64,000 nt of DNA from Clostridia bacterium (GCA_017453205.1 JAFTKO010000012.1:70530-134529); one strand, 5' to 3'. Shown: positions 9,186-58,451, numbered from the stretch's first letter. The notes: generated by a model not told the origin, from the sequence alone. Translations and numbers: made by a program.

Positions 9186-9248
9186 GTGAAAGTTTTTGAA
9201 GGATGGGGTACGGGGAAGGAAGCTTTTTTCAAAAAGCTTCCTTCCCCG
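9186..9248 (-). repeat. intergenic hairpin-plus-tail repeat, copy 2
   Basis: Reverse strand: CGGGGAAGGAAGCTTTTTgaaAAAAGCTTCCTTCCCCG plus tail TACCCCATCCTTCAAAAACTTTCAC. Confidence 0.55.
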
Positions 9249-9279
9249 TAAAAATAAGTCATTCTAACATTATCTAATA

Positions 9280-11100
9280 TTACTGATCGTCATCGAGCTT
9301 GAGAACTGCCATAAAGGCCTCGGGGGAGACTTGGACGGAGCCGAGCTGACGCATTTTCTTTTTGCCTTCCTTTTGCTTTTCAAGGAGCTTCTTTTTACGG
9401 GTGATATCACCGCCGTAGCATTTTGCGAGGACGTCTTTGCGGACGGCTTTGACGGTCTCGCGGGCGATGACCTTGGAGCCGATGGCGGCTTGGATGGGCA
9501 CCTCAAAGAGCTGACGCGGGATGTTGTCCTTCAGCTTTTCGGCAATGCGGCGCGCGCGTCCGTAGGCTTTTTCCTCATGGACGATAAAGGAGAGCGCGTC
9601 GACCTGTTCGCCGTTAAGCAGGAAGTCAAGCTTGACAAGCTTGGAGGGCTCGTAGCCATGGAGCTCGTAGTCCAGCGATGCGTAACCGCGCGAACGGCTC
9701 TTGAGCGCATCGAAAAAGTCGTAGATGATCTCATTGAGCGGCAGATTGTAGTGCAGCTCCACGCGGGTGGGGTCAAGATATTTCATGTCAAGGAACACAC
9801 CGCGGCGGTTTTGGCAAAGCTCCATCAGTCCACCCACGTATTCCACAGGCGTGATAATGTTTGCTTTGACAAGCGGCTCGTAAGCCACATCAATGGTGTC
9901 GGGCGCGGGATAGTTGGAGGGGTTGTCGATGCGCACCTTCTCGCCGTTTTTGAGCTTGATTTCGTAAATCACGCTGGGCGCGGTGGTGATGAGATCGAGG
10001 TTAAACTCACGCTCTAAGCGTTCTTCAATGATCTCCATGTGGAGAAGTCCGAGAAAGCCGCAACGGAAGCCAAAGCCCAGCGCAATCGAGGTCTCGGGTT
10101 CAAACAGAAGCGCCGCATCGTTGAGCTGTAGCTTTTCCAGCGCCTCACGCAGATCTTGATAGCGCGCACCGTCGGCGGGATAGATGCCCGCGTAGACCAT
10201 GGGCTGTACGGCTTTAAAGCCGGGGAGCGCCTCTGCGGTGGGATTTGCCACCAACGTTACAGTATCGCCCACACGTGTATCGCTGACACTCTTGATGGAC
10301 GCCGTGATATAGCCGACCTCACCGGCGGACAGGCGGTCGCATTTTTTCAGTCCAAAGGGTTCCATTGTGCCCACGTCAACCACATCAAAGGTGGCGCCCG
10401 TGCTCATCAGCTGAATTTTGTCTCCGCTCTTGACCGAGCCATCCATTACACGGATGTTGACAACGACACCGAGATAACTGTCATAGTAGGAATCAAAGAT
10501 CAAAGCCTTGAGCGGTGCGTTCTCATCCCCCTCGGGAGCGGGAATATCGCGTACCACGGCTTCAAGCACGTCGTGGATATTCTGCCCCGTTTTTGCCGAG
10601 ACGGCGGGGCAGTCCTCGGCGGGAATCCCGATCACATCCTCGATCTCGGCACGGCAACGGTCGATGTCGGCGGAGGGAAGATCGATCTTGTTGATGACGG
10701 GAATGATCTCGAGGTTGGCGTCCACCGCAAGGTAGGCGTTGGCAAGCGTTTGCGCCTCGATGCCCTGTGTGGCATCCACAACCAAAAGCGCCCCGTCGCA
10801 AGCATTGAGTGAACGCGACACCTCATAGTTGAAGTCGACGTGACCGGGCGTGTCGATGAGATTAAAGGTGTAAAGCTCACCGTTGTCAGCTTGATAGTCC
10901 AGCTTGACCGCGCGTGCCTTGATGGTGATGCCGCGCTCGCGCTCGAGGTCCATGTTGTCAAGGATCTGTTCCTCCATGTCGCGTTTGGCAACAGTTTGCG
11001 TTTGCTCCAAAATGCGGTCGGCAAGCGTGGACTTGCCGTGGTCGATGTGAGCAATGATCGAAAAATTGCGAATATGATTTTGACGTTCGGATTTTTGCAC
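9280..11100 (-). CDS. lepA: translation elongation factor 4
   Basis: [37 protein letters not shown], and a C-terminal LepA-specific domain. 606 aa. Confidence 0.97.
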
Positions 11101-11366
11101 GTGTTTGACCGTACCTTTCCTTACAATATAGAATGATCACTTAATTATACAATAAAAATCGCGCCGTGACAAGGGTTTTGCAATATTTTTCTTCAAAATT
11201 TAATAAAATAGAATTTGAATAGCAATATTTGTCTCAAAAAAAGCAACAGGTATCTTGAAAAAAGAACAAAAATGTTTTATACTGTATATGGACGGATATT
11301 TCCGAGACGAAAAAGTTGAAAAACGAAAAAAGTTTCCAACGGGAACACACGGAAAGGATTTGTATC

Positions 11367-12413
11367 ATGAAAAAAATGAGAACGGCAGTGGTAGGCTACG
11401 GCGGCATGGGCGGCTGGCACGTGGAGCATCTTTTAAAGAGCGACGTTTGCGAGCTTGCCGGTGTATATGATATCCGCAAAGAGCGAAACGAGCTGGCAGA
11501 GAGCCGCGGCATTCACGCGTATGCTTCTTACCGCGAGCTTTTGAGGGACGAAACGGTCGAGCTGATCACGGTGGCAATCCCCAACGACAGCCATGAGCAG
11601 GTCGTGATCGAGGCTTTGAACGCGGGCAAAAACGTCATTTGCGAAAAACCCGTGACCATGACACTGGAGTCTTTGGACCGCATGATCGCGGCGGCAGAGG
11701 CAAACGGCGTGCATTTTTCCACCCACCAAAACCGTCGTTGGGACGTGGACTTCCTTGCCATGAAGCAGATCCACGACTCGGGCGAGATCGGCAATGTCAT
11801 CAACATTGAGTCCCGTGTACACGGCAGCCGTGGCATTCCCTCCGACTGGAGAGGAGAAAAGTCGCACGGCGGCGGTATGATGTATGATTGGGGCATTCAT
11901 CTGATCGACCAAATTTTGATGATCTTTGGTTGGGATGTCAAGAGTGTTTACTGTGTTTGCGACCATATCACCAACCAAGAGGTGGACGACGGTTTCCGTT
12001 TGGAAATGATCTTTCGGAACGGACAGCGTGCGCACGTAGAGCTTGGCACCTACAACTTTATTGCCATGCCGCGTTTCTATATGCGCGCCGAAAAGGGCAC
12101 TGCGCTCATCACCGACTGGCGCGAGGAGGCGTTGGTTGTCAAGTGCAAGCACTGGCATGAAAACGATGTGCTTCCCGTCAAGACCGCGGCTGGTTTGACC
12201 AAGACCATGGCGCCGCGAGACGAGGTGACCACCGATACTTATCGTGTGCCGCGTCCTTCGTCGGATGTTCACGACTATTACCGTCATTTCGTTGCTGCCA
12301 TCCGTGGCGAGCGCGAGCAGGACGTGACCTACGACCAAATGCGTACCGACCTCAAAATCATTCTTGCCGCTTTCGAGTCCGCCGAAACGGGCTTGCCGGT
12401 GGAGATCAAATAA
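11367..12413 (+). CDS. Gfo/Idh/MocA family NAD(P)-dependent oxidoreductase
   Basis: Start moved to ATG 11367 (AAAGGA SD). MKKMRTAVVGYGGMGGWH Rossmann N-terminus and EKPVTMT block. Promoter-like TTGAAA-17-TATACT at 11255-11283. Confidence 0.8.
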   Translation: MKKMRTAVVGYGGMGGWHVEHLLKSDVCELAGVYDIRKERNELAESRGIHAYASYRELLRDETVELITVAIPNDSHEQVVIEALNAGKNVICEKPVTMTLESLDRMIAAAEANGVHFSTHQNRRWDVDFLAMKQIHDSGEIGNVINIESRVHGSRGIPSDWRGEKSHGGGMMYDWGIHLIDQILMIFGWDVKSVYCVCDHITNQEVDDGFRLEMIFRNGQRAHVELGTYNFIAMPRFYMRAEKGTALITDWREEALVVKCKHWHENDVLPVKTAAGLTKTMAPRDEVTTDTYRVPRPSSDVHDYYRHFVAAIRGEREQDVTYDQMRTDLKIILAAFESAETGLPVEIK

Positions 12414-12423
12414 TTGAATTATT

Positions 12424-12474
12424 CATGGAGGGGGTTTTTGCAAAAGCACCCTCCATGAAGCTTTCCCGTAAAAT
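12424..12474 (+). repeat. intergenic hairpin-plus-tail repeat, copy 3
   Basis: CATGGAGGGggtttttgcaaaagcaCCCTCCATG plus tail AAGCTTTCCCGTAAAAT. Confidence 0.45.
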
Positions 12475-12591
12475 CTTGAAAAAAGGGGACGGGATTTTTC
12501 GACTGCACATATCTTGACAATTCCACTTTTACTTGATTGGAATGAAATCAATCCCGCCGCAAGGTTTTGTCTGCTTTGCGGCGGGATATCA

Positions 12592-13320
12592 TTATTTGGA
12601 AATGATGTCAAACACGATCTCGCGTGCCATGATCAGCCCTGCCGCCGAGGGAACGAACGGGAGGGAGCCCGGGGCAAGCTTTTTGCTGTTTTGGTCGATC
12701 GGTTCCAAGGGCGCGTCGGCGGGGCGGGGAGCCGTCGGCTCGGAGGAAAAGACCACCTTGAGGTGTCGGAGCCCGCGGGACTTCAATTCTCTGCGCATCA
12801 CGCGTGCCAACGGACAGCCCTCGGTCTTAAAAAGATCGGTCACGGCAAAGCGGGTGGGATCGGTACGGTTTCCCGCGCCCATGGCGGCAATCATGGGGAT
12901 TCCCGCTTGCTCGGCTCTTACGGCAAGCTCGATCTTTGCCGACACCGTGTCAATGGCGTCTGCAATGTAGGTGTAGCCGCCCAGCGGATAGTCATCGGCA
13001 TTTTGCGGCAGATAAAAGGTTTGATGGGCGCGGACACGGCAACCGGGATTGATATCGAGGATCCGTTCTTTCATGACCTCGACCTTTGGTTTTCCGACTG
13101 TGGAATGTAATGCCACGATTTGACGGTTGATGTTGGAGAGCGAGACGGTGTCGTTATCAAAGAGATCGATGGCTCCCACGCCTGCGCGTGCCAATGCCTC
13201 ACAAAGATGTCCGCCGACGCCGCCGACGCCAAACACCGCAACGTGTGCGCTTTTGAGTTTTTCCATTGCCGCGTCTCCCAGCATCATCGCCGTGCGGATC
13301 TGTTCTTCTTTGCATTCCAT
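12592..13320 (-). CDS. tcdA: tRNA threonylcarbamoyladenosine dehydratase (ThiF/E1-like)
   Basis: VAVFGVGGVGGHLCEALARAGVGAIDLFDNDTVSLSNINRQ and PMIAAMGAGNRTDPTRF. Confidence 0.85.
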   Translation of the reverse strand: MECKEEQIRTAMMLGDAAMEKLKSAHVAVFGVGGVGGHLCEALARAGVGAIDLFDNDTVSLSNINRQIVALHSTVGKPKVEVMKERILDINPGCRVRAHQTFYLPQNADDYPLGGYTYIADAIDTVSAKIELAVRAEQAGIPMIAAMGAGNRTDPTRFAVTDLFKTEGCPLARVMRRELKSRGLRHLKVVFSSEPTAPRPADAPLEPIDQNSKKLAPGSLPFVPSAAGLIMAREIVFDIISK

Positions 13321-13430
13321 GGGTTGTTGTCCTTTCTTGACGGTAGAGTTTTTTTCATTTCCGTCTTTACAAATCGTTTTAAATGCTGTATAATATATAA
13401 AGTATTGTCCTTTGGAAAGGAAATTTTAAC

Positions 13431-14006
13431 ATGTGTAATTTGAATGATAAGGCTTTGGAGGAGCGCTGTGTTTCCTCCGAATTGATTTATGACGGTAAGG
13501 TTGTGCATTTGTATGTCGACCGTATCGCACTGCCCAACGGGGCGCCGTCGATCCGTGAATATGTCCGCCACATCGGCGCGGTTGCGGTACTTCCGCTGAC
13601 TGCCGATGGCGAGGTCATTTGTGTGCGGCAGTATCGCTATGCGCACGGGTGTGTGATGACCGAGATTCCCGCGGGTAAGCTCGACAGCCGCGAGGAGGAT
13701 CACATAGAGGCCGCTCTGCGTGAACTGCGCGAGGAAACGGGTGCCCGTTGCGGAAAGCTGACCTACCTCGGGCTTTATCGCTCCACGCCCGCTATTTTGG
13801 ATGAGAAGATCGACCTTTATCTTGCCGAGGAGCTGACCTTTGGTGAGACCGATCCCGATGAAGACGAGTTTTTGGAGATCGTTCGTCTGCCACTGGAGAG
13901 CTTGGTCGATCAAGTGATGGCGGGGGAGATCACCGACGGAAAAACACAGGTCGCCGTTCTCAAAGCCGCGGAGATCCTGCGTCGCCGCACACATGCAAAA
14001 GACTGA
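13431..14006 (+). CDS. nudF: ADP-ribose pyrophosphatase (Nudix hydrolase)
   Basis: Nudix box GKLDSREEDHIEAALRELREETG. N-terminal YDGKVVHLYVDRIALPNG is typical of ADPRase. Confidence 0.78.
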   Translation: MCNLNDKALEERCVSSELIYDGKVVHLYVDRIALPNGAPSIREYVRHIGAVAVLPLTADGEVICVRQYRYAHGCVMTEIPAGKLDSREEDHIEAALRELREETGARCGKLTYLGLYRSTPAILDEKIDLYLAEELTFGETDPDEDEFLEIVRLPLESLVDQVMAGEITDGKTQVAVLKAAEILRRRTHAKD

Positions 14007-14021
14007 CAAAAGGAGCGCATC

Positions 14022-14525
14022 ATGACCAAACGAAATGTAATGATAACAATCAAGACCTCCCGATTGCTGATTGCGGAATGTCTGTTCGATGAGAACGCGG
14101 AATACAACGAGGAGTCCGTGAATCTTCACAACGGGGAATTACCCGAGTCGGAGGAGATGCTGGTAGAGGGGCGTCTGGTAACCAACGGCGAACGCGTGGA
14201 GCTGTTGTACGAGGAAAGCGAGATCAGTGGGATGCAAGGTTCGGTAACTACCATTGGGTTCGAGCGCAATACGCCGGGGTTGATCTCGATGAACCGCACG
14301 GGCACGGTGCTCACCTCACTCGTTTTTGAGGAGGGCAAGCGCCATTTCAGCGTTTATGATACCATTTTCAGTAGCTTTCAAGTGTGTGTCCGCACCTTGC
14401 ATGTCGAAAATAAACTGCTTACCGAGGGGAAGATCGACATTGAATATCTGATCGAGATCCATGGTGCGCAAGCCGAGCGTTGTAAAATGAATATCCTTGT
14501 TTGCGACGCGAAAGAGCTGTTTTAA
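14022..14525 (+). CDS. DUF1934 domain protein (YwiB-like beta-barrel)
   Basis: AAGGAG SD. Pattern VEGRLVTNGERVELLYEESEISGMQGSVTTIGFE resembles DUF1934 proteins; from memory. Confidence 0.62.
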   Translation: MTKRNVMITIKTSRLLIAECLFDENAEYNEESVNLHNGELPESEEMLVEGRLVTNGERVELLYEESEISGMQGSVTTIGFERNTPGLISMNRTGTVLTSLVFEEGKRHFSVYDTIFSSFQVCVRTLHVENKLLTEGKIDIEYLIEIHGAQAERCKMNILVCDAKELF

Positions 14526-15436
14526 CGCTTTTGTCGAAATGGGAGCTGAGCCAGTACGATCCCGCAAAAAACAAGCGCACAGCCTAAAACTTCGCGTCCC
14601 GACAGGCGGTTTCCCGAAATCAGCCAACCGCCGAGCGCGGCAAATACGCTTTCCAAGCTCATGGAGAGCGACGCGACCGTCGGTTCGGCAAATCTTTGAC
14701 CGATGATTTGCAACGTGTAGGCGATTCCGCTGGAAAAGATACCGAGATAAAGAATTTGCGGTGACGCGGCAAGCACATTTTGCCAAACGGCATCCTCAAA
14801 TATCAGTGAGAGGATTGCGGAAAGCACTCCGCAAACAACAAACTGCCAAAACGAGAGTGTCACACCTCCCACCGTGTCGACATAGCGGTCGATGACGAGA
14901 ATGTGGAGAGAAAAACTGACGGCGCAAAGAAAGATGAGCAGGTCGCCAAGGTAGATCCCTCCCACACCGTCCGAAAAACAGAGGAACCAAATACCGCCCA
15001 TGGCAAGCGCCACAGCACCCAGGAGCGGGAGCCCGATCCGCTTGCCGAGAAAGACCGAGATCAGCGGTACCAAAATGACATACAGCGCGGTCAAAAATCC
15101 CGCGCGCGCCTCGGCAGCAACACCGTCGGGATAATAGGAAATTCCAAATTGTTGCAGATTGACGCTGACCGTCAAAAGCAGACCGCAAAGTCCACCGCCG
15201 ATCAGCGTTTTTTTGCGTTGTTCGGTGTCTTTCGGAAAGAGTGGTCGGTGCGTTTTGCGGTTGCGGAATAAGATCAGTATGAAAAGAAAGAGCGCCCCGA
15301 TCAAGGCACGGAGGCTGTTGAACAACAGCGGCGGAACTTTGTCCGCGGCGTCACTCTGTGCCACAAACGCCAAGCCCCAAATCAATGAGGCAAGACAGAG
15401 GATCAAACTGCCTTTGAGGTTGCGAAATCGGTTCAT
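14522..15436 (-). CDS. DMT-superfamily (EamA) transporter
   Basis: 304 aa, about 10 TM segments, two EamA-like halves. Confidence 0.8.
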   Translation of the reverse strand: MNRFRNLKGSLILCLASLIWGLAFVAQSDAADKVPPLLFNSLRALIGALFLFILILFRNRKTHRPLFPKDTEQRKKTLIGGGLCGLLLTVSVNLQQFGISYYPDGVAAEARAGFLTALYVILVPLISVFLGKRIGLPLLGAVALAMGGIWFLCFSDGVGGIYLGDLLIFLCAVSFSLHILVIDRYVDTVGGVTLSFWQFVVCGVLSAILSLIFEDAVWQNVLAASPQILYLGIFSSGIAYTLQIIGQRFAEPTVASLSMSLESVFAALGGWLISGNRLSGREVLGCALVFCGIVLAQLPFRQKR

Positions 15437-15600
15437 GTGTCAAAATCCTTTGCAAATGTGTTGATATAAGTATACCATATTTTGCGGGCGATTGCAAGAC
15501 GGTTTGCCGTAGTTTTTCTTTGAAAAAACATTATTGTATTGACTTTTTCCGTTAATCATGATATAATTTCAAATAGAAATCATGCAAAGGATTTGTGCAA

Positions 15601-16590
15601 ATGAAAAAATGTTCTGTTATCGTTCCGCTTTATAAGGGCAAGGAGTATATCGAAGCGTGTATTGCCGGTATTGTAGCGCAAACTTACACCGATTGGGAAT
15701 TGATCTTGATGGATGACGGTTCTCCGGATGATACCTATGATTTTGTAGCGAATGTGATCAGCCGATATCCGAATTGCGATATGCAGCTGTTCCGAAGGGA
15801 AAACCGCGGGGTTGCCGAAACGAGAAATGAGTGCATCACACTTGCAAGCGGAGAATATATCGCTTTTATGGATCAAGATGATATCCTTGCACCGGACTAT
15901 CTCGAACGCCTCATGGGGGCTACGAAAGACGGGGAGCTTGATATCGTGCTTTGCGGCTATAAACGCCAACGAGATGACGGAAAAGTGTTGTTAAATGTGA
16001 CGCTCGTCAATGATACGTGGTCTAAATACCGTGTTACCGCACCTTGGGCAAGAGTTTATAAAAAATCATTTTTGCAGAAAAATAACCTCAAATATTTGAC
16101 CACGCCCTGTGGCGAGGATATTTATTTAACGCTCCGTGCCTATGCCCTAACCAATAGAATCGCGGTGGTCGAGGATTACGCGGGGTATATTTGGCGCTAT
16201 AATGCATCCTCGGTCTCCAATACCAAGCAAAGGTCGGTTATGATTGCTGATGCCGCTTGTGAGACCTTTGAAAAAATTATGGCATCCCTTCCTAAAACGC
16301 ACTTCTGCAAAGCAGAGGATGAGGAATATTTCTTTATCCGTTCCTGCATTTTCTACCTCTTATTTTCATCTCATTCCGAAAATTCCTCGCAGGTGGAATA
16401 CGCTTACAACCGTTATTTTTCTTTCTTGGAAACGTATTTTCCCAACTATATCAAGAACAAACAGATCAGCCTTTTTCGTCCGCGCAGTGAGAGCTTTTCG
16501 GTCCGGTGTGCGGTGTGGGGCTTTATCACGCTCAAAAAAATAGGGCTTGCCAAACCTTTTGCCAAGCTTTGGAGCAAGTTGGCAAAATAA
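15601..16590 (+). CDS. glycosyltransferase family 2
   Basis: MKKCSVIVPLYKGKEYIEACIAGIVAQTYTDWELILMDDGSPDDT and FMDQDD (DxD). ATG 15601 or 15595. Promoter-like TTGACT-17-TATAAT upstream. Confidence 0.82.
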   Translation: MKKCSVIVPLYKGKEYIEACIAGIVAQTYTDWELILMDDGSPDDTYDFVANVISRYPNCDMQLFRRENRGVAETRNECITLASGEYIAFMDQDDILAPDYLERLMGATKDGELDIVLCGYKRQRDDGKVLLNVTLVNDTWSKYRVTAPWARVYKKSFLQKNNLKYLTTPCGEDIYLTLRAYALTNRIAVVEDYAGYIWRYNASSVSNTKQRSVMIADAACETFEKIMASLPKTHFCKAEDEEYFFIRSCIFYLLFSSHSENSSQVEYAYNRYFSFLETYFPNYIKNKQISLFRPRSESFSVRCAVWGFITLKKIGLAKPFAKLWSKLAK

Positions 16591-16596
16591 AACTGT

Positions 16597-16636
16597 AAAA
16601 AAGACAGGTGATTGTTGATCTTCTGTCTTTTTTTTC
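16597..16636 (+). terminator. rho-independent terminator after GT2
   Basis: AAAAAAGACAG...CTGTCTTTTTTTTT. Confidence 0.6.
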
Positions 16637-16761
16637 GAGTTTTCATCGCTTTTTATACAAATTTTGTGTTTTCTCAAATATTGTTCACAAAAAAGCCTTG
16701 CAGGGGCTTTCTTTTTATGCTATACTGATAATGAAGTACGCGAAAGGGGAGGAGAACTTAT

Positions 16762-18261: not shown

Positions 18262-18308
18262 GCGATTCACAAAAGGGGCTATCTTTATCAAGCATCATCT
18301 GCTCCAAC

Positions 18309-18336
18309 AAAAAAACGCCCCTATAGGCGTTTTTTT
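18309..18336. terminator. bidirectional terminator
   Basis: AAAAAAACGCC-cctata-GGCGTTTTTTT. Confidence 0.6.
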
Positions 18337-18420
18337 GGTACGGATGTTCAGTCCGCCATCGGTCACTGAACAAAAAAAGTAGCAGTGACAGTCCCCGATT
18401 TTTGGGACCGGCACTGCCGG

Positions 18421-18494: not shown

Positions 18495-18596
18495 AAATAT
18501 ATAGCGTTCCCAAAGGAACATTAATATTATAATACAAAAATCGTTCCGTGTCAAGATGTCATCCGAAATTTTTCAAAAAAATCATTTCGACATTTT

Positions 18597-18649
18597 GCAG
18601 GAAAGCTTTTGGAGGAGGGGAGGAACGCTTTTTTGCAAAGGTTCCTCCC
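18597..18649 (-). repeat. intergenic hairpin-plus-tail repeat, copy 4
   Basis: Reverse strand: GGGAGGAACctttgcaaaaaagcGTTCCTCCC plus tail CTCCTCCAAAAGCTTTCCTGC(AAAAT). Confidence 0.5.
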
Positions 18650-18662
18650 GCAAAAAATATTT

Positions 18663-20769: not shown

Positions 20770-20890
20770 GGTGAGTTCCTTTCTTGATTTTTGAGGGTTA
20801 CCCTAATCATATGCCAAAGCTTCTGAAAAGATGAGTTGCCGGCAGTGCCGTTATGAATTGATACAGCGCTCCGCAAGGGCAAATCATTGA

Positions 20891-20915
20891 AAAAAGGGGC
20901 GATCGCCCCTTTTTT
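20891..20915 (-). terminator. terminator after the M23 peptidase gene
   Basis: AAAAAGGGGCGATCGCCCCTTTTTT perfect palindrome starting 2 nt after the stop codon. Confidence 0.7.
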
Positions 20916-20916
20916 C

Positions 20917-30407: not shown

Positions 30408-30480
30408 AAGGCAAAACAATGGAAAACGGAACCGTGAAATATTACGGCTCCGTTTTTTGATGACTATAAAAAAATTTAAA

Positions 30481-30528
30481 AAAGTTTTTGAAAGGAGTTT
30501 GAGGGGAACTTTTGCAAAAGTTCCCCTC
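30481..30528 (-). repeat. intergenic hairpin-plus-tail repeat, copy 5
   Basis: Reverse strand: GAGGGGAACTTTTGCAAAAGTTCCCCTC (perfect 28-nt palindrome) plus tail AAACTCCTTTCAAAAACTTT. Confidence 0.55.
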
Positions 30529-30539
30529 AAGAATATAAT

Positions 30540-39773: not shown

Positions 39774-39775
39774 AT

Positions 39776-39821
39776 AAACAAACGGTGGAAAATTCTCTCG
39801 GGAATTTCCCACCGTTTGTTT
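39776..39821. terminator. bidirectional terminator between GH38 and cls
   Basis: 20-nt arms AAACAAACGGTGGAAAATTC / GAATTTCCCACCGTTTGTTT (one mismatch), followed by GCTTTTTT. Confidence 0.75.
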
Positions 39822-44469: not shown

Positions 44470-44760
44470 AATTATAAAAATAGGCTGTGACAGGAACAAA
44501 GTTCGGTCGGATATTACAGAGAGTTGTCGGTCGCTGCGAGACAATATACGAGACGGAATATAACTCATCCTTGAGCTTCCAATCCAAAGGCGTAAGCTGA
44601 GTAGAATTGGACGGGTTCTCCCGTTATTGAGAAGCCATATTGTTAGATGTGGCATAAGTGGGTGGAGTCACCAAGCAGAGTGGTACCGCGGAGAGCATAA
44701 ATCTTCGTCTCTTTTATGCAAAAGTATGATACTGTTGCGTAAAAGGGGCTTTTTGTTTTT
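44470..44760 (+). promoter_or_regulatory. T-box riboswitch leader, leucine specifier (CUC)
   Basis: Stem I AGAGAG...GCTGCGAG elements (44518-44540). Specifier-loop candidate AACTCA with CTC at 44564-44566. T-box sequence AGAGTGGTACCGCGG at 44677-44691. Terminator stem 44709-44747 followed by GCTTTTTGTTTTT. Confidence 0.85.
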
Positions 44761-48699: not shown

Positions 48700-48720
48700 A
48701 AAATCCATTTTTTAAAATAA

Positions 48721-49752
<1,032 letters not shown>

Positions 49753-49944
49753 GCGGCAAGACAAGTTGCTGTGATTTGACCCTTCTCTTACGGGCGACCG
49801 AAGGCAATCGCCGGTCGCCCGTAAAGGGATTTTGAACAAGAAAGTAATTTTGTAATGTTCGCACCCGTAGGAAGGAATTTGAGAATGTTGCTTGAATTTT
49901 TTCCTACAGGTGTGAATAAAAAAGTACATAGAATGGAGCTAAAA

Positions 49945-51606
49945 ATGATTAAAGATACCATTGTAAACGGCTTTCAAAATGCGCCTCACCGTTCGCTGTA
50001 TCACGCGCTGGGGCTCACTGACGAGGAGCTTTCGCGCCCTCTGATCGGTATTGTCAGTTCTTATAACGAGATCGTTCCGGGGCATATGAACCTGGATAAG
50101 ATCACCGACGCGGTCAAGCGCGGCGTGGCGATGGCGGGAGGAACCCCCATCATGTTCCCCGCAATCACGGTCTGCGACGGTATTGCCATGGGACATGTCG
50201 GTATGAAGTATTCGCTCGTCACACGCGATCTGATCGCCGACAGCACCGAGGCAATGGTCATGGCGCACGGCTTTGACGGCCTTGTCATGATCCCCAACTG
50301 CGACAAGAATGTTCCCGGACTCCTCATGGCGGCGGCAAGACTGAACATCCCCACGGTGTTTGTCAGCGGCGGTCCTATGCTGGCGGGACGCGTCGGCGGA
50401 CAAAAGCGCAGCCTTTCGAGTATGTTCGAGGCAGTCGGCGCTTACAATGCGGGTAAGATCAACGAGACACAGCTTTGCGAATTTGAGCGCAAGGTATGTC
50501 CCACCTGCGGCTCTTGCTCGGGGATGTACACCGCAAACTCAATGAACTGCTTGACCGAGGTTCTCGGTATGGGTCTGCGCGGCAACGGTACCGTTCCCGC
50601 AGTCTATTCTGCAAGAATCGAGCTTGCCAAGCACGCGGGTATGCAGGTCATGGAGCTGGTGAAAAAGAATATTCGTCCCCGTGACATTATGACAGAGGCG
50701 GCAATCCGCAATGCGGTGACCGCCGATATGGCACTGGGATGCTCCACCAACAGCATGCTCCACTTGCCCGCTATCGCAAACGAGTGCGGAGTACCTTTCA
50801 GCTTGGATGAAGTCAACCGCATCAGCGAAAAGACCCCCAACCTTTGCCATTTGGCTCCCGCGGGTCCCACCTATATGGAGGATCTGAACGAGGCGGGCGG
50901 TGTATACGCGGTGCTCAAGGAGCTGACCAAGCTCGGACTTCTTGACACCTCTGTCATGACCTGTACGGGCAAGACCTTGGGCGAGAACATTGCCGAGGCT
51001 GTCAATCTCGACGATACGGTCATCCGCACGGTGGAAAATCCCTACAGTAAGACAGGCGGTATCGCGGTTCTGCGCGGTAACCTTGCTCCCGACGGCTGTG
51101 TGGTCAAGAGAAGTGCCGTAGCACCCGAAATGTTGGTGCATGAGGGCCCCGCCAAGGTTTACGAAAGTGAAGAAGAAGCGATTGCCGCGATTTACGGCGG
51201 TAAGATCGTCAAGGGTGATGTAGTGGTCATTCGTTATGAGGGACCTGCGGGCGGTCCCGGTATGCGTGAGATGCTTTCTCCCACTTCCGCCATCGCGGGC
51301 ATGGGACTTGATAAGGATGTTGCCTTGATCACCGACGGACGTTTCTCGGGGGCTACCCGCGGCGCGTCGATCGGTCACATTTCTCCCGAGGCGGTCAGCG
51401 GCGGAACCGTCGCTTATGTAAAGGATGGAGATATCATCTCCATCAACATTCCCGAATATAAGATCGAGCTCAAGGTTTCCGACGAGGAGCTGGCGAAACG
51501 CCGCACCGAGATGCCGATCAAGAAGAAAGAGAATATCACGGGCTATCTCAAACGCTACGCCGCACAGGTCAGCTCTGCTGACCGCGGTGCGATCATTAAT
51601 AAATAA
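49945..51606 (+). CDS. ilvD: dihydroxy-acid dehydratase
   Basis: Start moved to ATG 49945 (GGAG SD). [35 protein letters not shown]. Confidence 0.93.
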
Positions 51607-51630
51607 TCAAACAGGAAGGAACACCGAACG

Positions 51631-52905
51631 ATGTCTACCAAAATGACGATGACGCAAAAGATCCTCGCGGCGCACGCGGGACTCGAGAGCGTTGAAGCGG
51701 GACAATTGATCTTGGTCAATGTTGACCGTGTATTGGGAAATGATATTACATCTCCCGTTGCCATTCGCGAGTTTGAGCGGATCGGCGTCAAGGACGTTTA
51801 CGATAAAGAAAAGGTGACAATGGTCATGGACCATTTCGCACCCAACAAGGATATCAAGGCGGCGGTTCAGTGCAAAATGTGCCGCGAGTTCTGCGGAGAT
51901 CATGAAATTACCAATTTCTATGACGTGGGACGCATGGGCATCGAGCATGCGCTCCTTCCCGAAAAGGGACTGGTCGTTCCCGGGGACGTGGTCATCGGCG
52001 CCGACTCTCACACTTGCACCTACGGTGCCATCGGTGCGTTTTCCACGGGTGTCGGTTCCACCGATATGGCGTGCGGAATGGCGACCGGTAAGGCTTGGTT
52101 TAAGGTTCCCTCGGCAATTAAATTTGTCCTCAAGGGCAAGCTGAACAAATACGTTTCGGGTAAGGATGTGATCCTGCACATCATTGGTATGATCGGTGTG
52201 GACGGCGCGCTTTACAAGTCTATGGAATTTGTCGGCGAGGGTGTGGCAGCTTTGACTGTGTTCGACCGCTTGACGATTTCCAATATGGCGATCGAGGCGG
52301 GCGCGAAGAACGGTATTTTTGAGGTTGATGACGCAACCTTGGCTTACGTCAACGAAAGAGCGCAAAAGCCCTATACAGTCTACAAGGCAGATCCCGACGC
52401 GGAATACGACGAGACTTACGAGATCGATCTTTCCAAGATCAAGTCCACCGTTGCTTTCCCGCATCTTCCCGAAAATACCCGTACCATTGACGAGGTGGGA
52501 GATGTGCGCATCGATCAGATCGTCATCGGCTCCTGTACCAACGGTCACTATAAGGATCTTGCCGAGGCGGCTGAGATCCTCAAGGGCAAAAAGATTGCCG
52601 ACCATGTGCGTGCCATCATTATTCCCGCTACACAGGAGATCTACCTCAAGGCAATGGAAAACGGCCTCTTAAAGATCTTTATCGACGCGGGCTGTGCCGT
52701 ATCTACCCCGACGTGCGGACCTTGTCTTGGCGGTCATATGGGTATTCTTGCGGCAGGAGAGCGCGCAGTTGCCACCACCAACCGCAATTTTGTCGGACGT
52801 ATGGGTGACGTCAAATCCGAGGTTTACCTCGCAAGCCCCGCGGTAGCTGCTGCCAGTGCAATTGCAGGTAAGATCGCTGATCCCAACGCGGTCATGGCGA
52901 ACTGA
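51631..52905 (+). CDS. leuC: 3-isopropylmalate dehydratase, large subunit
   Basis: Aconitase-family blocks [11 protein letters not shown] and GSCTNG; TCGPCLGG. Confidence 0.93.
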
Positions 52906-52926
52906 CGAAAGGAGTGGAATCCGATT

Positions 52927-53421
52927 ATGAATTTTAACGGTAAAGTTTTGAAATACGGGGACAATGTGGATACCGACGTGATCATTCCCGCACGTTACCT
53001 CAACACCATTGATAAAAAAGAGCTTGCCACGCACTGTATGGAGGACATTGACAAGGATTTTGTCAACAAGGTAGCTCCCGGTGACATTATGGTCGCCGGC
53101 TACAACTTCGGTTGCGGTTCCTCCCGTGAGCACGCACCCATCGTCATCAAGGAGAGCGGCGTGTCCTTGGTCATTGCCAAGAGCTTTGCTCGCATCTTCT
53201 ATCGCAACGCCATCAACATCGGTCTTGCGATCCTCGAATGCCCCGAGGCGGCAGAGGAGATCGCGGAGGGAGACATTGTGGAGGCCGACCTTGATGCGGG
53301 TGTAATCTACAACCGCACCACGGGCAAGCAGTACGCCACACAGCCGTTCCCCGAATTTATTCAGCAGATCATCACGAATGGCGGACTGGTGGAATCGATC
53401 CGCAAAGGAGCAATCAAATGA
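52927..53421 (+). CDS. leuD: 3-isopropylmalate dehydratase, small subunit
   Basis: 164 aa; [13 protein letters not shown]. Confidence 0.92.
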
Positions 53422-54485
53422 GATATAATATTGCATTACTCAAAGGCGACGGCATCGGTCCCGAGATCGTGGACAGTGCGGTTCGCGTACTGGAAAAGAT
53501 CGGTCAAAAATACGGACACGAGTTTGTTTTTACCCCTTACCTCATCGGCGGTGCCGCGATTGACGCTTGCGGTGAGCCGCTCCCCAAAGAGACGGTCGCG
53601 GGCTGTCTCGCATCTGACAGCGTACTGCTTGGTGCGGTCGGAGGACCGAAGTGGGACACCCTCCCCGGGAACCTCCGTCCCGAAAAGGCTTTGCTCGGCA
53701 TTCGCGCGGCAATGGAGCTTTTTACCAATCTCCGTCCCGCAAAGCTTTATCCCGCATTGAAGGACGAGTGTCCTTTGCGTGCCGATATCGTCGAGAACGG
53801 CTTTGATATCATGATCGTTCGCGAGCTGACGGGCGGCATCTATTTTGGCGAGAGAGGAATGCGCGAGGGCAAGTGGGGCGAAGAGGCATACGACACCGAA
53901 TGCTACAGCCGCATGGAGATTGAGCGTATCGCAAAGGTCGCGTTTGAGACCGCAATGAAGCGCGGTAAGCACGTCACCAGTATCGATAAAGCAAACGTGC
54001 TGGAAAGCTCCAGACTTTGGAGAAAGATCATGCACGAGACCGCCGAGCGCTATCCCGATGTCGAGTACCGTGATATGTTGGTCGACAACGCCGCGATGCA
54101 GCTGGTGCGCAACCCCGCGCAATTTGATGTCATCGTGACCTCCAATATGTTCGGTGATATCCTATCGGATGAGGCATCGCAGATCACGGGTTCGATCGGT
54201 ATGCTCCCGTCCGCGTCCTTGGGCGAGACCTCCCGCGGACTTTACGAGCCGATCCATGGTTCCGCACCCGACATTGCGGGTCAGCATAAGGCGAACCCCA
54301 TTGCTACCATTCTTTCGGCAGGCATGATGCTGTTGCACGCGTTTGGGCTTTCCAAGGAGCACGATGCAATCGTAAATGCGGTTGACGCGGTGCTGAACGC
54401 GGGCTACCGCACAGCCGATCTTTCCCACGGTGCTCCGTATCTCACCACCGAGGAGATCACCGACAAGATTTTGGAGCAGATTTAA
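53418..54485 (+). CDS. leuB: 3-isopropylmalate dehydrogenase
   Basis: [14 protein letters not shown] and [16 protein letters not shown] overlap with leuD. Confidence 0.93.
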
Positions 54486-54492
54486 GAGGCAA

Positions 54493-55677
54493 ATGATGTC
54501 AAACATACAAATGCTTGCTTTGCGCTTGCATACGCTTACGGTATTTCGCGCACTTCTCGGGCTTACGCTATTTGAAAATTTTCTTGCATATGCGCGGGAA
54601 AATGATAGCGCGTGCAAGATCGATCGCTATGCGGAAATGGTATGTGAGGTCTACTGCCAAGGCGGTGATCTGACCGCCGCTGTGCGCAAAGCCCTGTTTG
54701 AAAATGAAAATGTATACGTCACTGCGTTGGCAGCAGGGAAGGGCGTGGATGCGCATATCGTTGCCTCGGCGGAGCGCGAGCTTGCCATCCTTTCGGAGCT
54801 TGCCTCACTGACACCGTCCGATTGGAAAGCCGATATCGGACTTGATATCGAGCTTCCCTTGTTTACTTCTCAAAAGGTCGACTTTGCCCCCGAATACCGC
54901 GTGCGCATTGCAGATATTCACAAGCATGGCTACGGGATTTTCGCTTCTCACGGAATGTTCCGTCTGTCGGACAGTGGGGAAAGAAGCATAGAGCCCATTG
55001 TCAGCGCCGACCGCATCACGGTCGAGACCTTTACGGGATATGAGGCAGAGCGCCAAAAGGTAATTGCCAATACGCAAGCCTTTGTGGACGGCAAGCCTGC
55101 CGCAAACGTCCTGCTTTACGGTGACGCGGGCACGGGAAAATCCTCCACGGTCAAGGCGGTGGCAAATCAATTTTTTGATGAGGGTGTTCGTTTGATCGAG
55201 CTGCGCAAGGATCAGATGTCGCTTTTGCCGTTTGTGATGGAAAAGATCAGCCGCAATCCCCTTAAATTTATCATTTTTATCGATGACCTGTCCTTTAACC
55301 GCAATGACGATACTTTCAGTATGCTCAAGGCGGCGCTCGAGGGTTCGGCGTCGGCAAAGGCGTCCAACGCGGTCATTTACGCCACCAGCAACCGCCGCCA
55401 CATCGTGCGCGAGTGCTTTGACGAACGTGAGGGCTCGGATGTCCACCGCAACGACACAATGCAGGAGCTCCTGTCTTTGTCGGCACGCTTTGGCTTGACG
55501 GTGCGGTTTGAAAAGCCCAACAAGGAGCTTTATCTGACAATCGTCCGTGAGCTTGCACAAAAGAAGGGCGTGACCAAGGAAGTGCATGAACTGGAGATCG
55601 AAGCCGAGGCGTTTGCGCTTGCTCGCGGTCACCGTTCGCCCCGTTGTGCGGAACAATATATCGACAGTCTTTTGTAA
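54493..55677 (+). CDS. DUF815-family P-loop ATPase (AAA-like), function unknown
   Basis: Start moved to ATG 54493. Walker A LLYGDAGTGKSS, Walker B FIIFIDDLSF, ATSNRRH. DUF815 call from memory. Confidence 0.75.
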   Translation: MMSNIQMLALRLHTLTVFRALLGLTLFENFLAYARENDSACKIDRYAEMVCEVYCQGGDLTAAVRKALFENENVYVTALAAGKGVDAHIVASAERELAILSELASLTPSDWKADIGLDIELPLFTSQKVDFAPEYRVRIADIHKHGYGIFASHGMFRLSDSGERSIEPIVSADRITVETFTGYEAERQKVIANTQAFVDGKPAANVLLYGDAGTGKSSTVKAVANQFFDEGVRLIELRKDQMSLLPFVMEKISRNPLKFIIFIDDLSFNRNDDTFSMLKAALEGSASAKASNAVIYATSNRRHIVRECFDEREGSDVHRNDTMQELLSLSARFGLTVRFEKPNKELYLTIVRELAQKKGVTKEVHELEIEAEAFALARGHRSPRCAEQYIDSLL

Positions 55678-55709
55678 GAGAAGATTTGAAAAGAAAAGAG
55701 AGTGAACAT

Positions 55710-56909
55710 ATGCTGACACTTGACAATGTGTATCGTGCAAGCTACGCGCTGAAAAATGTTATTCGCAAGACCGACGTGATCTACGCGCCCAAGCTTTGTC
55801 CCGAGGCACAGATCTATTTGAAAACCGAGAACCTGCAAATTACGGGTTCCTTTAAGGTGCGCGGTTCTTACTACAAAATGTCACGGCTTTCCGATGAGGA
55901 AAAGGCGCGCGGTGTGATTGCCTGTTCGGCGGGGAACCACGCACAAGGCGTGGCGCTTTCCGCACAGCGCAACGGGATTAAGGCAGTCATCTGTCTGCCA
56001 GACGGTGCCCCCATTTCCAAGGTGGAGGCGACCAAGAGCTATGGCGCCGAGGTGTGCTTGGTGGAGGGTGTTTATGATGATGCTTACCGCAAGGCGCTCG
56101 AGCTGCGCGACGAAAAGGGCTACACTTTTATCCACCCGTTTGATGATGAAGATGTCATCGCGGGGCAGGGAACCATCGCATTGGAGCTGATGGAGCAGAT
56201 ATCCGATATGGATGCAGTCATCGTACCCATCGGTGGCGGCGGACTGATTGCGGGAATTGCTTACACCATCAAAACGCTCCGTCCCGACATCAAGGTGTAC
56301 GGGGTACAGGCGTGTGGTGCACCCTCTATGGCAAACTCGATCCGCGACGGCAAGATTGAGGAGCTTTCGGGTGTTTCCACCATTGCCGACGGTATCGCTG
56401 TGAAAAAGCCGGGTTCCCTTACATATGAAATTTGCAGTCAGTATGTGGATGAGGTCGTCACGGTCACCGATGACGAAATCTCAGCGGCAATTCTTGCGCT
56501 GATGGAACAGCAAAAGCTGGTCACCGAGGGTGCGGGTGCCGTTGCGGTTGCGGCGGCAATGTTCGGCAAGGTCGATATCAAGGGCAAAAAGGTGGTCTGC
56601 CTCCTGTCGGGCGGCAATATCGATGTGACCATTCTCTCGCGCGTGATCGATCGCGGGCTCCTTATGTCGGGTAGAACGTGTCAGCTGATGATCGAGCTTG
56701 TCGACAAGCCCGGTCAGCTCAAAGACGTTTCCCGGATTATCGCCGATCTTGGCGGAAATGTGATCTCGGTACACCACGAGCGTGCGAACCCCGGGTCCAA
56801 TGTTAACGGCTGTTATTTGCGCATTATTCTCGAAACGCGTAACTTTGAGCATATCAACCAAATCAACACCGCATTGACCGACGCGGGATTCAGATTGATT
56901 TCAGGATGA
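55710..56909 (+). CDS. ilvA: threonine ammonia-lyase (short form with one ACT-like domain)
   Basis: Start moved to ATG 55710. PLP site [11 protein letters not shown] and GGGGLIAG; C-terminal regulatory domain. Confidence 0.88.
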
Positions 56910-56947
56910 AAACACGCGAGGCAGAACCTCGAAAAGGAGAATATCAC

Positions 56948-57319
56948 ATGAAAAAAGTAGCAACAGAAAAAGCACCCGCGGCGATCGGACCGTATTCACA
57001 GGCGACGATTGTAGGAAATTTGGTATATACCTCGGGGCAGATCGCAATTGATCCCGCCGTGGGAGATATTGTGGCAAAGGATGTTCGCGAGCAGAGCGAA
57101 CAGGTGATGAAGAACTTAGGTGCGGTGCTCGAGGCGGCGGGAAGCTCCTACGAGAAAGCGGTCAAGACCACCTGTTTTCTTGCAAACATCGGTGATTTTG
57201 CCGTTTTCAACGAAGTATACGGTAAGTATTTTACCGAAAAGCCCGCACGTAGCTGTGTCGCGGTAGCGGCGCTCCCGAAAGGCGCTTTGGTTGAAGTAGA
57301 AGTCATTGCGGAGCTTTGA
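56948..57319 (+). CDS. ridA: RidA family reactive enamine/imine deaminase
   Basis: ATG 56948 (AAGGAG SD). [40 protein letters not shown]. Confidence 0.88.
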
Positions 57320-57359
57320 TCCGCTTTTCAATAAAGAATTAAGAAAGGAAGCATGAAAA

Positions 57360-58385
57360 ATGTCTGCAAAAGAGATCGATTGGAGTAGCCTTGGGTTTGG
57401 ATATGTGAAAACCGACCTACGCTATGTTGCCAATTACAAGGACGGAAAATGGGATGACGGAGCCCTGACCGACAATGAAAACATCGTACTGAACGAGTGT
57501 GCGGGTGTTCTGCAATACGCACAGACCTGCTTTGAGGGTCTGAAAGCCTACACCACCGAGGACGGACGCATCGTCTGCTTCCGCCCCGATTTGAATGCCG
57601 AGCGTATGATCAATTCCTGCGAACGCATGAAGATGCCCGTATTTCCCAAGGAGCGTTTTCTTGACGCCATTGTCAAGACGGTTGCCGCAAACCGCGAGTG
57701 GGTTCCGCCTTACGGTTCGGGTGCCTCCCTCTATCTGCGTCCCTACATGTTCGGCAGTAATTCGGTCATCGGCGTCAAGCCCGCAACCGAGTATCAGTTC
57801 CGCGTATTCGCAACCCCCGTTGGTCCTTACTTTAAGGGCGGTGTCAAGCCGTTGACGGTTCGCATCAGTGATTACGATCGTGCCGCTCCTCACGGAACGG
57901 GACACATCAAGGCGGGACTGAACTATGCCATGAGCCTTTACGCCATCGTTGACGCGCATGAACAGGGCTTTGACGAAAATATCTATCTTGACCCCGGTAC
58001 ACGTACCTACATCGAAGAGACCGGCGGTGCCAACATTCTGTTGGTTACCAAGGATGGTAAAGTCGTTACTCCCAAATCGAGTAGCATTCTGCCCTCCATT
58101 ACCCGCCGTTCGCTGATGTATGTTGCAAAAGAGTATCTCGGTATGGAGGTTGAGGAGCGTCAAGTACGCCTTGACGAGTTGGATACCTTTGCCGAGTGCG
58201 GTCTCTGCGGTACTGCGGCGGTCATCTCGCCCGTGGGCAAGATCGTTGACCACGGTAAGGAGATCTGTTTGCCTTCCGGTATGAACGACATGGGACCTGT
58301 GACCAAAAAGCTGTACGACACTCTGCGCGGCATTCAGATGGGAACCATCCCCGCGCCCGAAGGCTGGATCGTGGAGATCAAGTAA
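57360..58385 (+). CDS. ilvE: branched-chain amino-acid aminotransferase
   Basis: 341 aa class IV aminotransferase; CFEGLKAY, GTGHIKAGLNY, EETGGANI. Confidence 0.9.
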   Translation: MSAKEIDWSSLGFGYVKTDLRYVANYKDGKWDDGALTDNENIVLNECAGVLQYAQTCFEGLKAYTTEDGRIVCFRPDLNAERMINSCERMKMPVFPKERFLDAIVKTVAANREWVPPYGSGASLYLRPYMFGSNSVIGVKPATEYQFRVFATPVGPYFKGGVKPLTVRISDYDRAAPHGTGHIKAGLNYAMSLYAIVDAHEQGFDENIYLDPGTRTYIEETGGANILLVTKDGKVVTPKSSSILPSITRRSLMYVAKEYLGMEVEERQVRLDELDTFAECGLCGTAAVISPVGKIVDHGKEICLPSGMNDMGPVTKKLYDTLRGIQMGTIPAPEGWIVEIK

Positions 58386-58402
58386 TTTTGAATTGTTTTT
58401 TG

Positions 58403-58451
58403 TGGGGAAACTTTTTCAAAAGTTTCCCCACACCCATTTAAAAGTTTTCAC
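58403..58451 (+). repeat. intergenic hairpin-plus-tail repeat, copy 6
   Basis: T-run, then TGGGGAAACTTTTtcAAAAGTTTCCCCA, then tail CACCCATTTAAAAGTTTTCAC. Confidence 0.55.

Follow-up and report, generated by a model that had tools for sequence, protein, structure and literature searches.

Background

Repetitive extragenic palindromic (REP) sequences lie mostly in transcribed 3' regions, and those of Escherichia coli stabilize the mRNA upstream of them. In PAN, MALAT1 and some viral or transposon RNAs, the element for nuclear expression (ENE) presents a U-rich internal loop that engages poly(A) or an A-rich tract in U.A-U triples. Bacterial intrastrand triplex motifs have been known since the 1990s-2000: BoxC of E. 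coli, identical to the potential intrastrand triplex (PIT) elements (Hoyne/Maher 2000, via Holder et al. 2015) and to TMECO in the ITxF database (PMC4666352), forms a triplex in vitro (PMC4666352), and no function has been found for it beyond an association with instability (PMC4666352). Evidence for selection on the triplex, or for a function, has been lacking, in part owing to how little the E. coli copies differ from one another. Here we analyze a family of intergenic hairpin units with a conserved 3' flank, six copies of which (c1 to c6) lie in a 64,000-nucleotide stretch of a Clostridia bacterium assembly (GCA_017453205.1, JAFTKO010000012.1:70530-134529; hereafter the window), and compare it with these systems.

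Results and discussion

The window hairpins belong to a large, dispersed family

Direct reading of the window confirmed the six copies at the coordinates and on the strands that a first-pass annotation had assigned to them. A covariance model built solely from 62 outside metagenome sequences, with the window sequence excluded, recovered exactly these six (E-values of 1.7e-11 for c5, 6.8e-10 for c2, 1.2e-8 for c1, 2e-7 for c6, 5.5e-5 for c4 and 2.8e-4 for c3); the next distinct locus, 4651-4705 on the minus strand (E=0.02), is an ordinary hairpin without the A/T apex. Thus the window hairpins are real, non-chance members of a family, as the annotation had supposed. Palindrome scans, including T/A-apex scans of the whole window, revealed no seventh copy. 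BLAST among the copies and against relatives returned self-hits only, the likeness being one of motif and structure; a recent repeat of high identity in the window genome is thus not what the family represents. A loose regular expression for the tail motif matched the window hundreds of times, so the tail alone is uninformative.

Relatives were searched with hand-anchored nhmmer profiles and later with the covariance model, and genes were called by codon-usage scoring together with the annotated calls around lepA. A metagenome pattern search (hairpin core plus TCAAAA) yielded at least 120 stretches from gut, sediment and other samples, on contigs with a GC content of 0.28-0.68. Among the matches listed, nearly all carry a C-rich linker and then (A)CTTTT after the A-run, beyond the bases that the pattern required; thus the tail, which the first-pass annotation had described as conserved, is a family-wide feature, although c3 has no C-rich spacer. 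Applied to 642 kb of collected loci, the covariance model returned 202 matches with E<=1e-4, counting both strands. Two loci of 31-32% GC, L228 and L229, are dense in units, with 5-6 of them per 10-14 kb, and most of these stand directly behind a co-oriented gene or gene cluster.

In 1.19 Mb around lepA from 80 related species the covariance model found members in six close relatives only; the nearest relatives with members, by the hand-anchored profile, were L005, L006, L009, L010, L018 and L029. The LepA protein of the window is identical on four ENA metagenome contigs, and the closest GTDB genomes are metagenome-assembled genomes of uncultured Clostridia/Eubacteriales from ruminant and human gut, whose LepA proteins are at most 93% identical to it.

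A hairpin-only pattern in IMG/VR led to one 41-kb contig with at least seven true members, some of them in tandem. This AT-rich contig (IMGVR_UViG_3300046305_000071, loci L089-L091) encodes UvrD, a helicase with eight HA domains and an Ulp1-like protease, genes that do not decide between a viral and a host nature. Most other IMG/VR matches to the hairpin-only pattern were set aside as an unrelated giant-virus palindrome: in L085-L143, mainly GVMAG giant-virus contigs, a TTTTGGAACTTTTTAAAAAGTTCCAAAA palindrome with conserved flanks is repeated many times and shares only its core with the bacterial family.

No blastn match to the consensus unit was obtained in PLSDB plasmids or INPHARED phages, a result to which the low-complexity filter may have contributed. 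Rfam matched no family to the units, either in the window (gathering threshold; E<=1) or in 11 outside loci, and a T-box and a tRNA were the only hits. No description of the family was found in Rfam, in PMC4666352 or by literature text search, and a full-text search for the sequences themselves gave irrelevant matches only. The units form a large and apparently undescribed repeat family of uncultured bacteria, situated just after gene ends.

Unit anatomy and covariation of the stem

The unit spans ~55-70 nt and consists of an optional U/T-rich lead, a near-perfect palindrome and, after 1-3 nt, a flank. The 5' arm of the palindrome is purine-only up to its AAC (G/A tract plus AAC; GGGRRAAC), the apex is T4-5-NN-A4-5 and the 3' arm is the pyrimidine complement. 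The flank follows a simple rule: each G of arm 1 is answered by C, each A by T (or A) and, along the apex, each T by A, with the consensus CCCC-TC-AAAAA-C-TTTT. The U-rich 5' flank is a weak family feature, the consensus of the outside model opening with 'aauuuu'; of the T-rich runs first ascribed to all copies, those of c1, c2, c4 and c6 (at least 5 T) stand, while c3 and c5 have none.

The first-pass description of a conserved apex on variable but complementary stems was borne out by covariation. Over 146 distinct aligned matches, 97.8% of stem pairs are standard, two-sided changes occur at 14 of the 15 pairs, and compensatory cells number 311 as against 83+-7 after shuffling (reached in 0 of 500 shuffles), with far fewer in slid registers. 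G.U pairs make up ~0.5% of stem cells. The inner stem columns switch solely between G-C and A-U, which keeps the 5' arm purine-only. Such scarcity of G.U and such restriction of the inner pairs are unusual for an ordinary RNA hairpin. As a guide to the RNA strand, the asymmetry of G.U and A.C mismatches offered 13 informative cases only (9 A.C/C.A versus 4 G.T).

Conservation of the apex could also reflect a site for a dimeric DNA-binding protein (nucleoid, partition or regulatory) on AAC-TTTTT-NN-AAAAA-GTT. The apex is indeed kept across contigs of very different GC content, in perfect palindromes with a 2-nt centre; however, its conservation is partly ascertainment, since the search pattern required it, and a protein site would leave the purine-only arm, the mirror flank, the gene orientation and the variable outer stems unexplained. 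The consensus sequences of CodY, LexA and parS differ from this apex. We therefore consider a protein site very improbable. Shine-Dalgarno (SD)/anti-SD mimicry, CodY, LexA, a parS half-site, an integron attC site and a serine-recombinase (hix-like) site were each rejected on sequence or context; none of them accounts for the mirror flank.

Longer alignments separated two sub-families: one in which the unit is followed by a conserved canonical terminator, and one in which an inverted pair of units surrounds a central hairpin and the tails of both units pair mutually, as in REPINs (REP doublets forming hairpins) or bacterial interspersed mosaic elements (BIMEs). A GAGAGGGGAAC-type unit is one of the unit types, alongside window c2. 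The foot of arm 1 often holds a stop codon (TTGAGGGG, CTTAAGG, CTAGGGG; e.g., metagenome loci L155, L161, L178 and L232), and in five metagenome cases the upstream open reading frame (ORF) ends within the foot, in which case the stop codon may come from the unit itself.

The 3' flank mirrors the stem

When arm 1 and the linker between arm 2 and the A-run are aligned, the linker reads as the parallel complement of the arm-1 purine tract: GAGAGGGGAA is answered by CTCTCCCCTC, GGAGGGGAA by CCTCCCCTC, GGGAGGGAA by CCCTCCCTC or CCCACCCTC, GGGAAGGAA by CCCATCCTC, GGGGGAA by CCCCCTC, AGGAA by ACCTC and, in window c2, GGGGAAGGAAG by CCCCATCCTTC. Among 28 distinct purine tracts tabulated, most obey this mirror rule and a few listed representatives do not. 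Over 87 elements, right-anchored identity to the parallel complement was 75%, versus 51+-2% when permuted (reached in 0 of 2000 permutations; 40+-2% once the two G positions that the search pattern dictates are excluded). With the register shifted by 1-3 nt the identity fell to 39-54%, and the antiparallel reading fitted worse (z of ~5 versus ~10 for parallel).

The same relation extends into the tail. Its A-run is as long as the T-run of arm 1 (Fisher 4e-18 on counts of 34/1/10/64), the next base is complementary to the one that opens the loop (83 of 86 for G to C), and arms with TTCTT or TTTCT are paired with tails carrying AAGAA or AAAGA (c1, L018, L187 and the second hairpins of composites). 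Opposite G the flank shows C in 115 of 132 cases; opposite a non-terminal A of arm 1 it shows T in 16 and A in 15.

The first-pass annotation had taken the tail for a degenerate direct copy of arm 2. In local alignments of 108 non-identical members, however, the parallel complement of arm 1 plus loop beats a direct copy of loop plus arm 2 by 94 to 9, and among 25 members that the search pattern had not selected the mirror model wins 24 and the direct copy none. Within the window the mirror scores are significant solely on the predicted side (p=3e-4 for c2 and c6, 0.0017 for c5, 0.018 for c1 and 0.03 for c4), and c4 is the sole copy in which a direct copy fits better. As a control, ten unrelated hairpins gave 2 of 20 flanks below 0.05, the lowest at 0.013.

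Because members of a sub-family have inherited arm and flank jointly, the permutation p-values overstate independence; the argument for the mirror stands on the many distinct variants that obey the rule and on the register control. Since polymerases make only reverse complements, a mirror repeat that tracks its stem needs selection for a parallel pairing rule. By these comparisons the flank reads as a mirror of arm 2, not as a direct copy of it.

These data also bear on the earlier idea that arm 1 could pair with either arm 2 or the tail, in the manner of an attenuator-like switch. With arm 2 blocked, arm 1 and tail do pair at a predicted -7.5 to -13.7 kcal/mol, and the c4 tail resembles arm 2. 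However, the main hairpin is at -19.6 to -32.9 kcal/mol, so that the alternative falls short of it by 6-23 kcal/mol, the flank throughout the family is a mirror rather than a repeat, and the conserved C after the A-run (93 of 109) would place a C.C mismatch in the arm 1-tail helix. Such a switch is scarcely credible.

The six copies in the window

The window copies are near-perfect palindromes of 26-38 nt with a centre of 2-5 nt, and as RNA their minimum free energies are -21 to -33 kcal/mol (z of -3.6 to -7.5 versus dinucleotide shuffles). In order from c1 to c6 the arm-1 G/A tracts are GGGAAA, GGGGAAGGAAG, GGAGGGGG, GGGAGGAA, GAGGGGAA and GGGGAAA, each followed by C and then by the T-run into the loop. 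All six are singletons, and downstream of their flanks no Watson-Crick partner of the kind present in composite elements was found. A small ORF over the hairpin on the opposite strand was ruled out, the frames being inconsistent among copies.

Copy c1 lies between the divergently transcribed TP_methylase and Amidase_3 genes. Behind a T-run read directly at 7387-7393 (+), its palindromic hairpin (7396-7421, +) comprises arm 1 GGGAAACTTCTT (7396-7407), the centre GA (7408-7409) and arm 2 AAGAAGTTTCCC (7410-7421); the 3' flank (7422-7441, +), ACACCCTC plus AAGAATTTTCAC, reads as the mirror (parallel complement) of arm 1 and does so on this side only. Its TTCTT in the arm is matched by AAGAA in the tail.

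Copy c2 starts 31 nt past the lepA stop codon, with a T-run at 9250-9254 (-). The hairpin (9211-9248, -; -32.9 kcal/mol) is a perfect 38-nt palindrome with arm 1 CGGGGAAGGAAGCTTTTT at 9248-9231, the centre GA and arm 2 at 9228-9211. In the 3' flank TA-CCCCATCCTTC-AAAAACTTTCAC (9186-9210, -), CCCCATCCTTC is the parallel complement of GGGGAAGGAAG at 10 of 11 positions, and the mirror score is 16 versus a direct-copy score of 6.

Copy c3, the most degenerate of the six, is an imperfect hairpin CATGGAGGGGGTTTTT-GC-AAAAGCACCCTCCATG (12424-12457, +) placed 10 nt past the stop codon of a GFO_IDH_MocA oxidoreductase; its tail AAGCTTTCCCGTAAAATC (12458-12475, +) lacks the C-rich linker and shows no significant mirror relation (p=0.29). 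A GC-rich hairpin with no clear U-tract lies at 12551-12587, downstream of a ThiF-like gene (12592-13320, -) that converges on c3, so that the terminator of the ThiF-like/c3 gene pair is not obvious.

Copy c4 starts 13 nt past the coaX stop codon, upstream of tRNA-Gly. A T-run at 18652-18657 (-) precedes the hairpin GGGAGGAACCTTT-GCAAA-AAAG(C)GTTCCTCCC (18618-18649, -), which has a one-base bulge, and the 3' flank is CTCCTCC-AAAAGCTTTCCTGC (18597-18617, -).

Copy c5, ~10 nt past the asd stop codon, is a perfect palindrome TTGAGGGGAACTTTT-GC-AAAAGTTCCCCTCAA (30499-30530, -). Its 3' flank ACTCCTTTC-AAAAACTTTTTT (30478-30498, -) reads as the mirror of GAGGGGAAC-TTTT with two C-to-T decays. Directly 3' of it stands a canonical bidirectional terminator (A-tract, hairpin, T-tract) at 30422-30455.

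Copy c6 follows a T-run at 58396-58401 (+), 17 nt past the ilvE stop codon; the palindrome GTGGGGAAACTTTT-TC-AAAAGTTTCCCCAC (58402-58431, +) continues into the 3' flank ACCCATTT-AAAAGTTTTCAC (58432-58451, +), which reads as the parallel complement of GGGAAA-TTTT-(T)C-AAAA (score 12), the tail base G answering the loop base C. Copies c2 (9160-9190, -) and c6 (58449-58468, +) share CAC(C)GCATT(GA)TTTTTA(C/T)TGCGCT 3' of the tail, which forms a small hairpin and suggests a slightly longer common unit for both. A T-box leader (RF00230, 109.7 bits) at 44478-44715 (+) is directly upstream of an ilvB-like cluster that reaches ilvE at 58385, with c6 at the 3' end of the cluster; this T-box and tRNA-Gly are the sole Rfam matches in the window.

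Units typically lie between stop codons and terminators

Five of the six window copies (c2-c6) begin 10-31 nt past the stop codon of a co-oriented gene, as had been noticed at the outset, and the spacing from stop codon to sense-oriented copy ranges over 3-40 nt. In the window and its relatives, 14 members lie within 40 nt past a long co-oriented ORF and none is clearly antisense; in metagenomes, sense versus antisense numbered 27 versus 7 (56 units away from contig ends). In L006, where two genes converge, a co-oriented unit stands behind each of them, and a bidirectional canonical terminator separates the two units.

None of the six is directly followed by a U-tract, in agreement with the first-pass annotation: the stems continue with ACACCC, TACCCC or CTCCTCC, and the first T-run is 12-20 nt off. 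A hairpin plus T-run occurs within 130 nt 3' of 37 of 71 metagenome units (within 31 nt for 26) and in 61 of 240 random segments. A canonical hairpin plus T-run is present within ~30-130 nt of c5, L006a, L006c and about half of the metagenome copies, and in the low-GC sub-family including the L228/L229 type a terminator-like hairpin plus T-run comes after the unit. The window also contains ordinary A-tract/hairpin/T-tract terminators (e.g., 18306-18339, 20889-20916, 30422-30455, 39775-39820 and 63672-63705), from which the family is thus distinct, and the one at 30422-30455 shows that asd is not terminated by c5. In its typical setting, therefore, the unit is a 3' untranslated region (3'-UTR) module placed between stop codon and terminator, not a terminator.

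The first-pass annotation had offered an atypical terminator as one explanation, in which a factor-independent hairpin (possibly clamped) and a weak AAAAAC-UUUU hybrid would release the transcript without an adjacent U-tract. Consistent with this are the sense orientation 3' of genes, mostly at gene-cluster ends, the C-TTTT that ends the tail of most members, the absence of another obvious terminator at lepA, coaX and ilvE in the window, and an ordinary U-tract terminator at the orthologous c3 site in L005, which can, however, also be counted against the units being terminators themselves. On the other hand, 12-20 nt separate the T-run from the foot of the stem, roughly half of the units directly precede a canonical terminator, c1, L010:481-532 (L010b) and L018 are in divergent promoter regions, and E. 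coli PIT elements have no terminator activity (PMC4666352). We consider this explanation quite improbable.

The reading to which we incline, tentatively, is a REP-like, triplex-capable family kept in 3' UTRs in the sense orientation, most likely as a very stable 3' structure. Units would be retained almost only in the transcribed spacer from the stop codon to the true intrinsic terminator. In the transcript the unit would fold into an exceptionally stable 3'-UTR stem-loop, possibly clamped by a third strand, which would block 3'-to-5' exonucleolytic decay and so insulate the upstream coding region, like E. coli REP elements; the unit itself would not be a terminator. An RNA role of this kind is suggested by position and orientation.

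Turnover and repeat-like behavior

Orthologous sites differ among relatives. In L005 the unit is absent from the c1 site, the c3 site holds the ordinary terminator mentioned above and the c2 site after lepA has a diverged hairpin; after lepA, L010 carries a unit of another type past the stop codon, and in L006 there is no unit and the next gene follows lepA directly. Composites of 190-230 nt recur almost unchanged at different loci, and many copies are found at contig ends in metagenomes. Tandems (L090/L091), an inverted pair (L006) and partial copies are also present. The REP-like character first proposed therefore holds: the units are dispersed and multi-copy, in single, tandem and inverted arrangements.

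At a contig end downstream of lepA, L010 has a 156-bp tandem duplication (2430-2716) with a unit and extra GGGGCTCTGCCCC-type hairpins. L005 (41-330) holds a cluster in which a full unit is closely preceded by a direct duplication of 17 nt of its arm 1 and followed, ~100 nt downstream, by a partial copy made of loop, arm 2 and linker.

The 230-nt composites are bounded by two similar hairpins, and no duplication was seen at 11 insertion sites. Alignments of the composite elements revealed no transposase, target-site duplication or terminal inverted repeats, and no gene for a REP-associated tyrosine transposase (RAYT; Y1/HUH transposase) was seen in the annotated 20 kb around lepA.

These traits raise the main rival to a 3'-UTR role, namely that the units are a selfish mobile DNA repeat of the REP, BoxC or miniature inverted-repeat transposable element (MITE) kind, whose hairpin and triplex fold matters in single-stranded DNA, either because a transposase or recombinase recognizes it or because it forms a non-B structure prone to rearrangement. 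The sense orientation of the units, and their place behind stop codons, would then only mark tolerated insertions, e.g., through loss when the purine-motif strand is the exposed non-template strand. Several observations agree with such a repeat: i) the stems are almost purely Watson-Crick, with scant G.U; ii) the A-or-T opposite A suits a purine motif on the antisense DNA strand; iii) presence and absence, as well as replacement by another unit type, are seen at orthologous sites; iv) near-identical long composites recur at separate loci and copies accumulate at contig ends; v) tandem, inverted and partial copies exist; vi) the taxonomic distribution is patchy, with members at the lepA loci of 6 of 80 related species, yet on contigs of 28-68% GC; and vii) TMECO loci are tied to genome instability (PMC4666352).

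However, besides the negative result for a transposase, target-site duplication and terminal inverted repeats in the composite alignments, the six window copies have six different stems and yet five of them have matching mirror flanks (p<0.05; three at p<=0.002), which argues for selection at each locus rather than for dead copies. Moreover, units packed at 5-6 per 10-14 kb, for the most part immediately behind genes or gene clusters, have the look of a host signal, and the orientation bias here has no counterpart in E. coli TMECO. We judge a selfish repeat somewhat unlikely; it is not mutually exclusive with a 3'-UTR role (cf. E. coli REPs).

A possible natural triple-helix element

The order of the parts (a purine strand, a loop, the Watson-Crick pyrimidine strand, 1-3 nt and a parallel pyrimidine strand) reads as the classical design of a single-strand triplex. 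In the terms of PMC4666352, the sense strand would be of class III (pyrimidine motif) and the antisense DNA strand of class I (purine motif). A homopurine block is Watson-Crick paired with a homopyrimidine block of the same strand, and a third, mirroring block after a short loop is found family-wide, with p<=0.002 in c2, c5 and c6, p<0.05 in c1 and c4, and no significant mirror in c3. Pyrimidine-type intrastrand triplexes are possible in RNA (PMC4666352), and from this arrangement we infer that the units can form a triplex. The units are possibly natural triple-helix elements under selection, acting either as an RNA clamp that guards or defines the 3' ends of operons or as a template-strand purine-motif DNA triplex at gene ends during transcription or replication; we hold this with less confidence than the stable 3' structure as such.

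Several points weigh against the reading as a stable, possibly triplex-clamped 3'-UTR structure in the sense RNA. The near-absence of G.U is unusual for selection at the RNA level and fits a constraint on DNA or a strict triplex geometry, and the promoter-region copies (c1, L010b and L018) are not in 3' UTRs. In the flank, A is found as often as T opposite A; the purine motif allows both and the pyrimidine motif only T, so this mix appears to fit a purine motif in antisense DNA better than a pyrimidine motif in RNA. Furthermore, a sense RNA triplex needs 3-6 consecutive C+.G-C triples, which are unfavorable at neutral pH; thus the antisense DNA triplex would be chemically easier, and the sense RNA triplex possible but less comfortable. 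The same neutral-pH handicap is stated for class III, and E. coli PIT elements have neither terminator nor promoter activity (both PMC4666352).

Significance

If the triplex reading is true, the three-way coordinated variation over ~28 stem variants would be comparative evidence for a functional nucleic-acid triplex in bacteria. The family supplies what the BoxC/PIT/TMECO motifs could not: dozens of variants in which all three strands vary in concert, a strict placement and orientation with respect to genes and, in some genomes, a very high density. Thus whether bacteria use triple helices, and why, becomes directly testable. In practice, the units break metagenome assemblies and risk being mistaken for terminators, and they could mark operon ends in uncultured gut Clostridia and other anaerobes.

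Comparison with known systems

The proposed unit resembles the ENE in being 3'-terminal and in having a downstream strand in the major groove of a hairpin, where it would protect against 3'-to-5' decay. It differs in that it is bacterial, in its putative third strand, which is rich in C, lies on a G-C stem and directly follows the hairpin, and in that it is known here from sequence alone.

Like intrinsic (Rho-independent) terminators, the units are GC-rich stem-loops 3' of genes or clusters in sense orientation. The U-tract of a terminator (~7-9 nt) adjoins the stem, whereas the units have none there and often precede a true terminator; their conserved apex and flank and their occasional location in promoter regions also set them apart.

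With the REP/BIME/REPIN elements of proteobacteria the family shares extragenic palindromes of 20-40 bp in many dispersed copies (here 6 per 64 kb), single, tandem and inverted-pair arrangements, and a presence that varies among relatives. REP/BIME elements have a GT[AG]G tetranucleotide 5' of the palindrome, whereas the 5' side of the units is T-rich or variable and the conserved ACCC (GGGT on the other strand) is 3'. REPs have neither the purine/pyrimidine strand asymmetry nor the mirror flank, both of which are present in the family, and the strong orientation bias of the units is unlike REP/BIME.

The likeness to TMECO is one of design: both are short multi-copy intergenic units of purine, Watson-Crick pyrimidine and mirror blocks with short connectors, in both the complementary strand carries the other triplex class, inverted pairs occur and no function is known. 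TMECO, reported in 262 proteobacterial genomes (PMC4666352), has the consensus CCCTCNCCC-N3-6-GGGNGAGGG-N3-GGGNGAGGG, different from the family in sequence and block order. In the family the first 'loop' is an A/T mini-helix of 12-16 nt through which the mirror runs, and which would exceed the 1-6 nt that ITxF allows for a loop. Finally, TMECO copies are near-identical, more often upstream of ORFs and without strand bias, whereas the family comprises many co-varying variants with a strong sense bias after stop codons.

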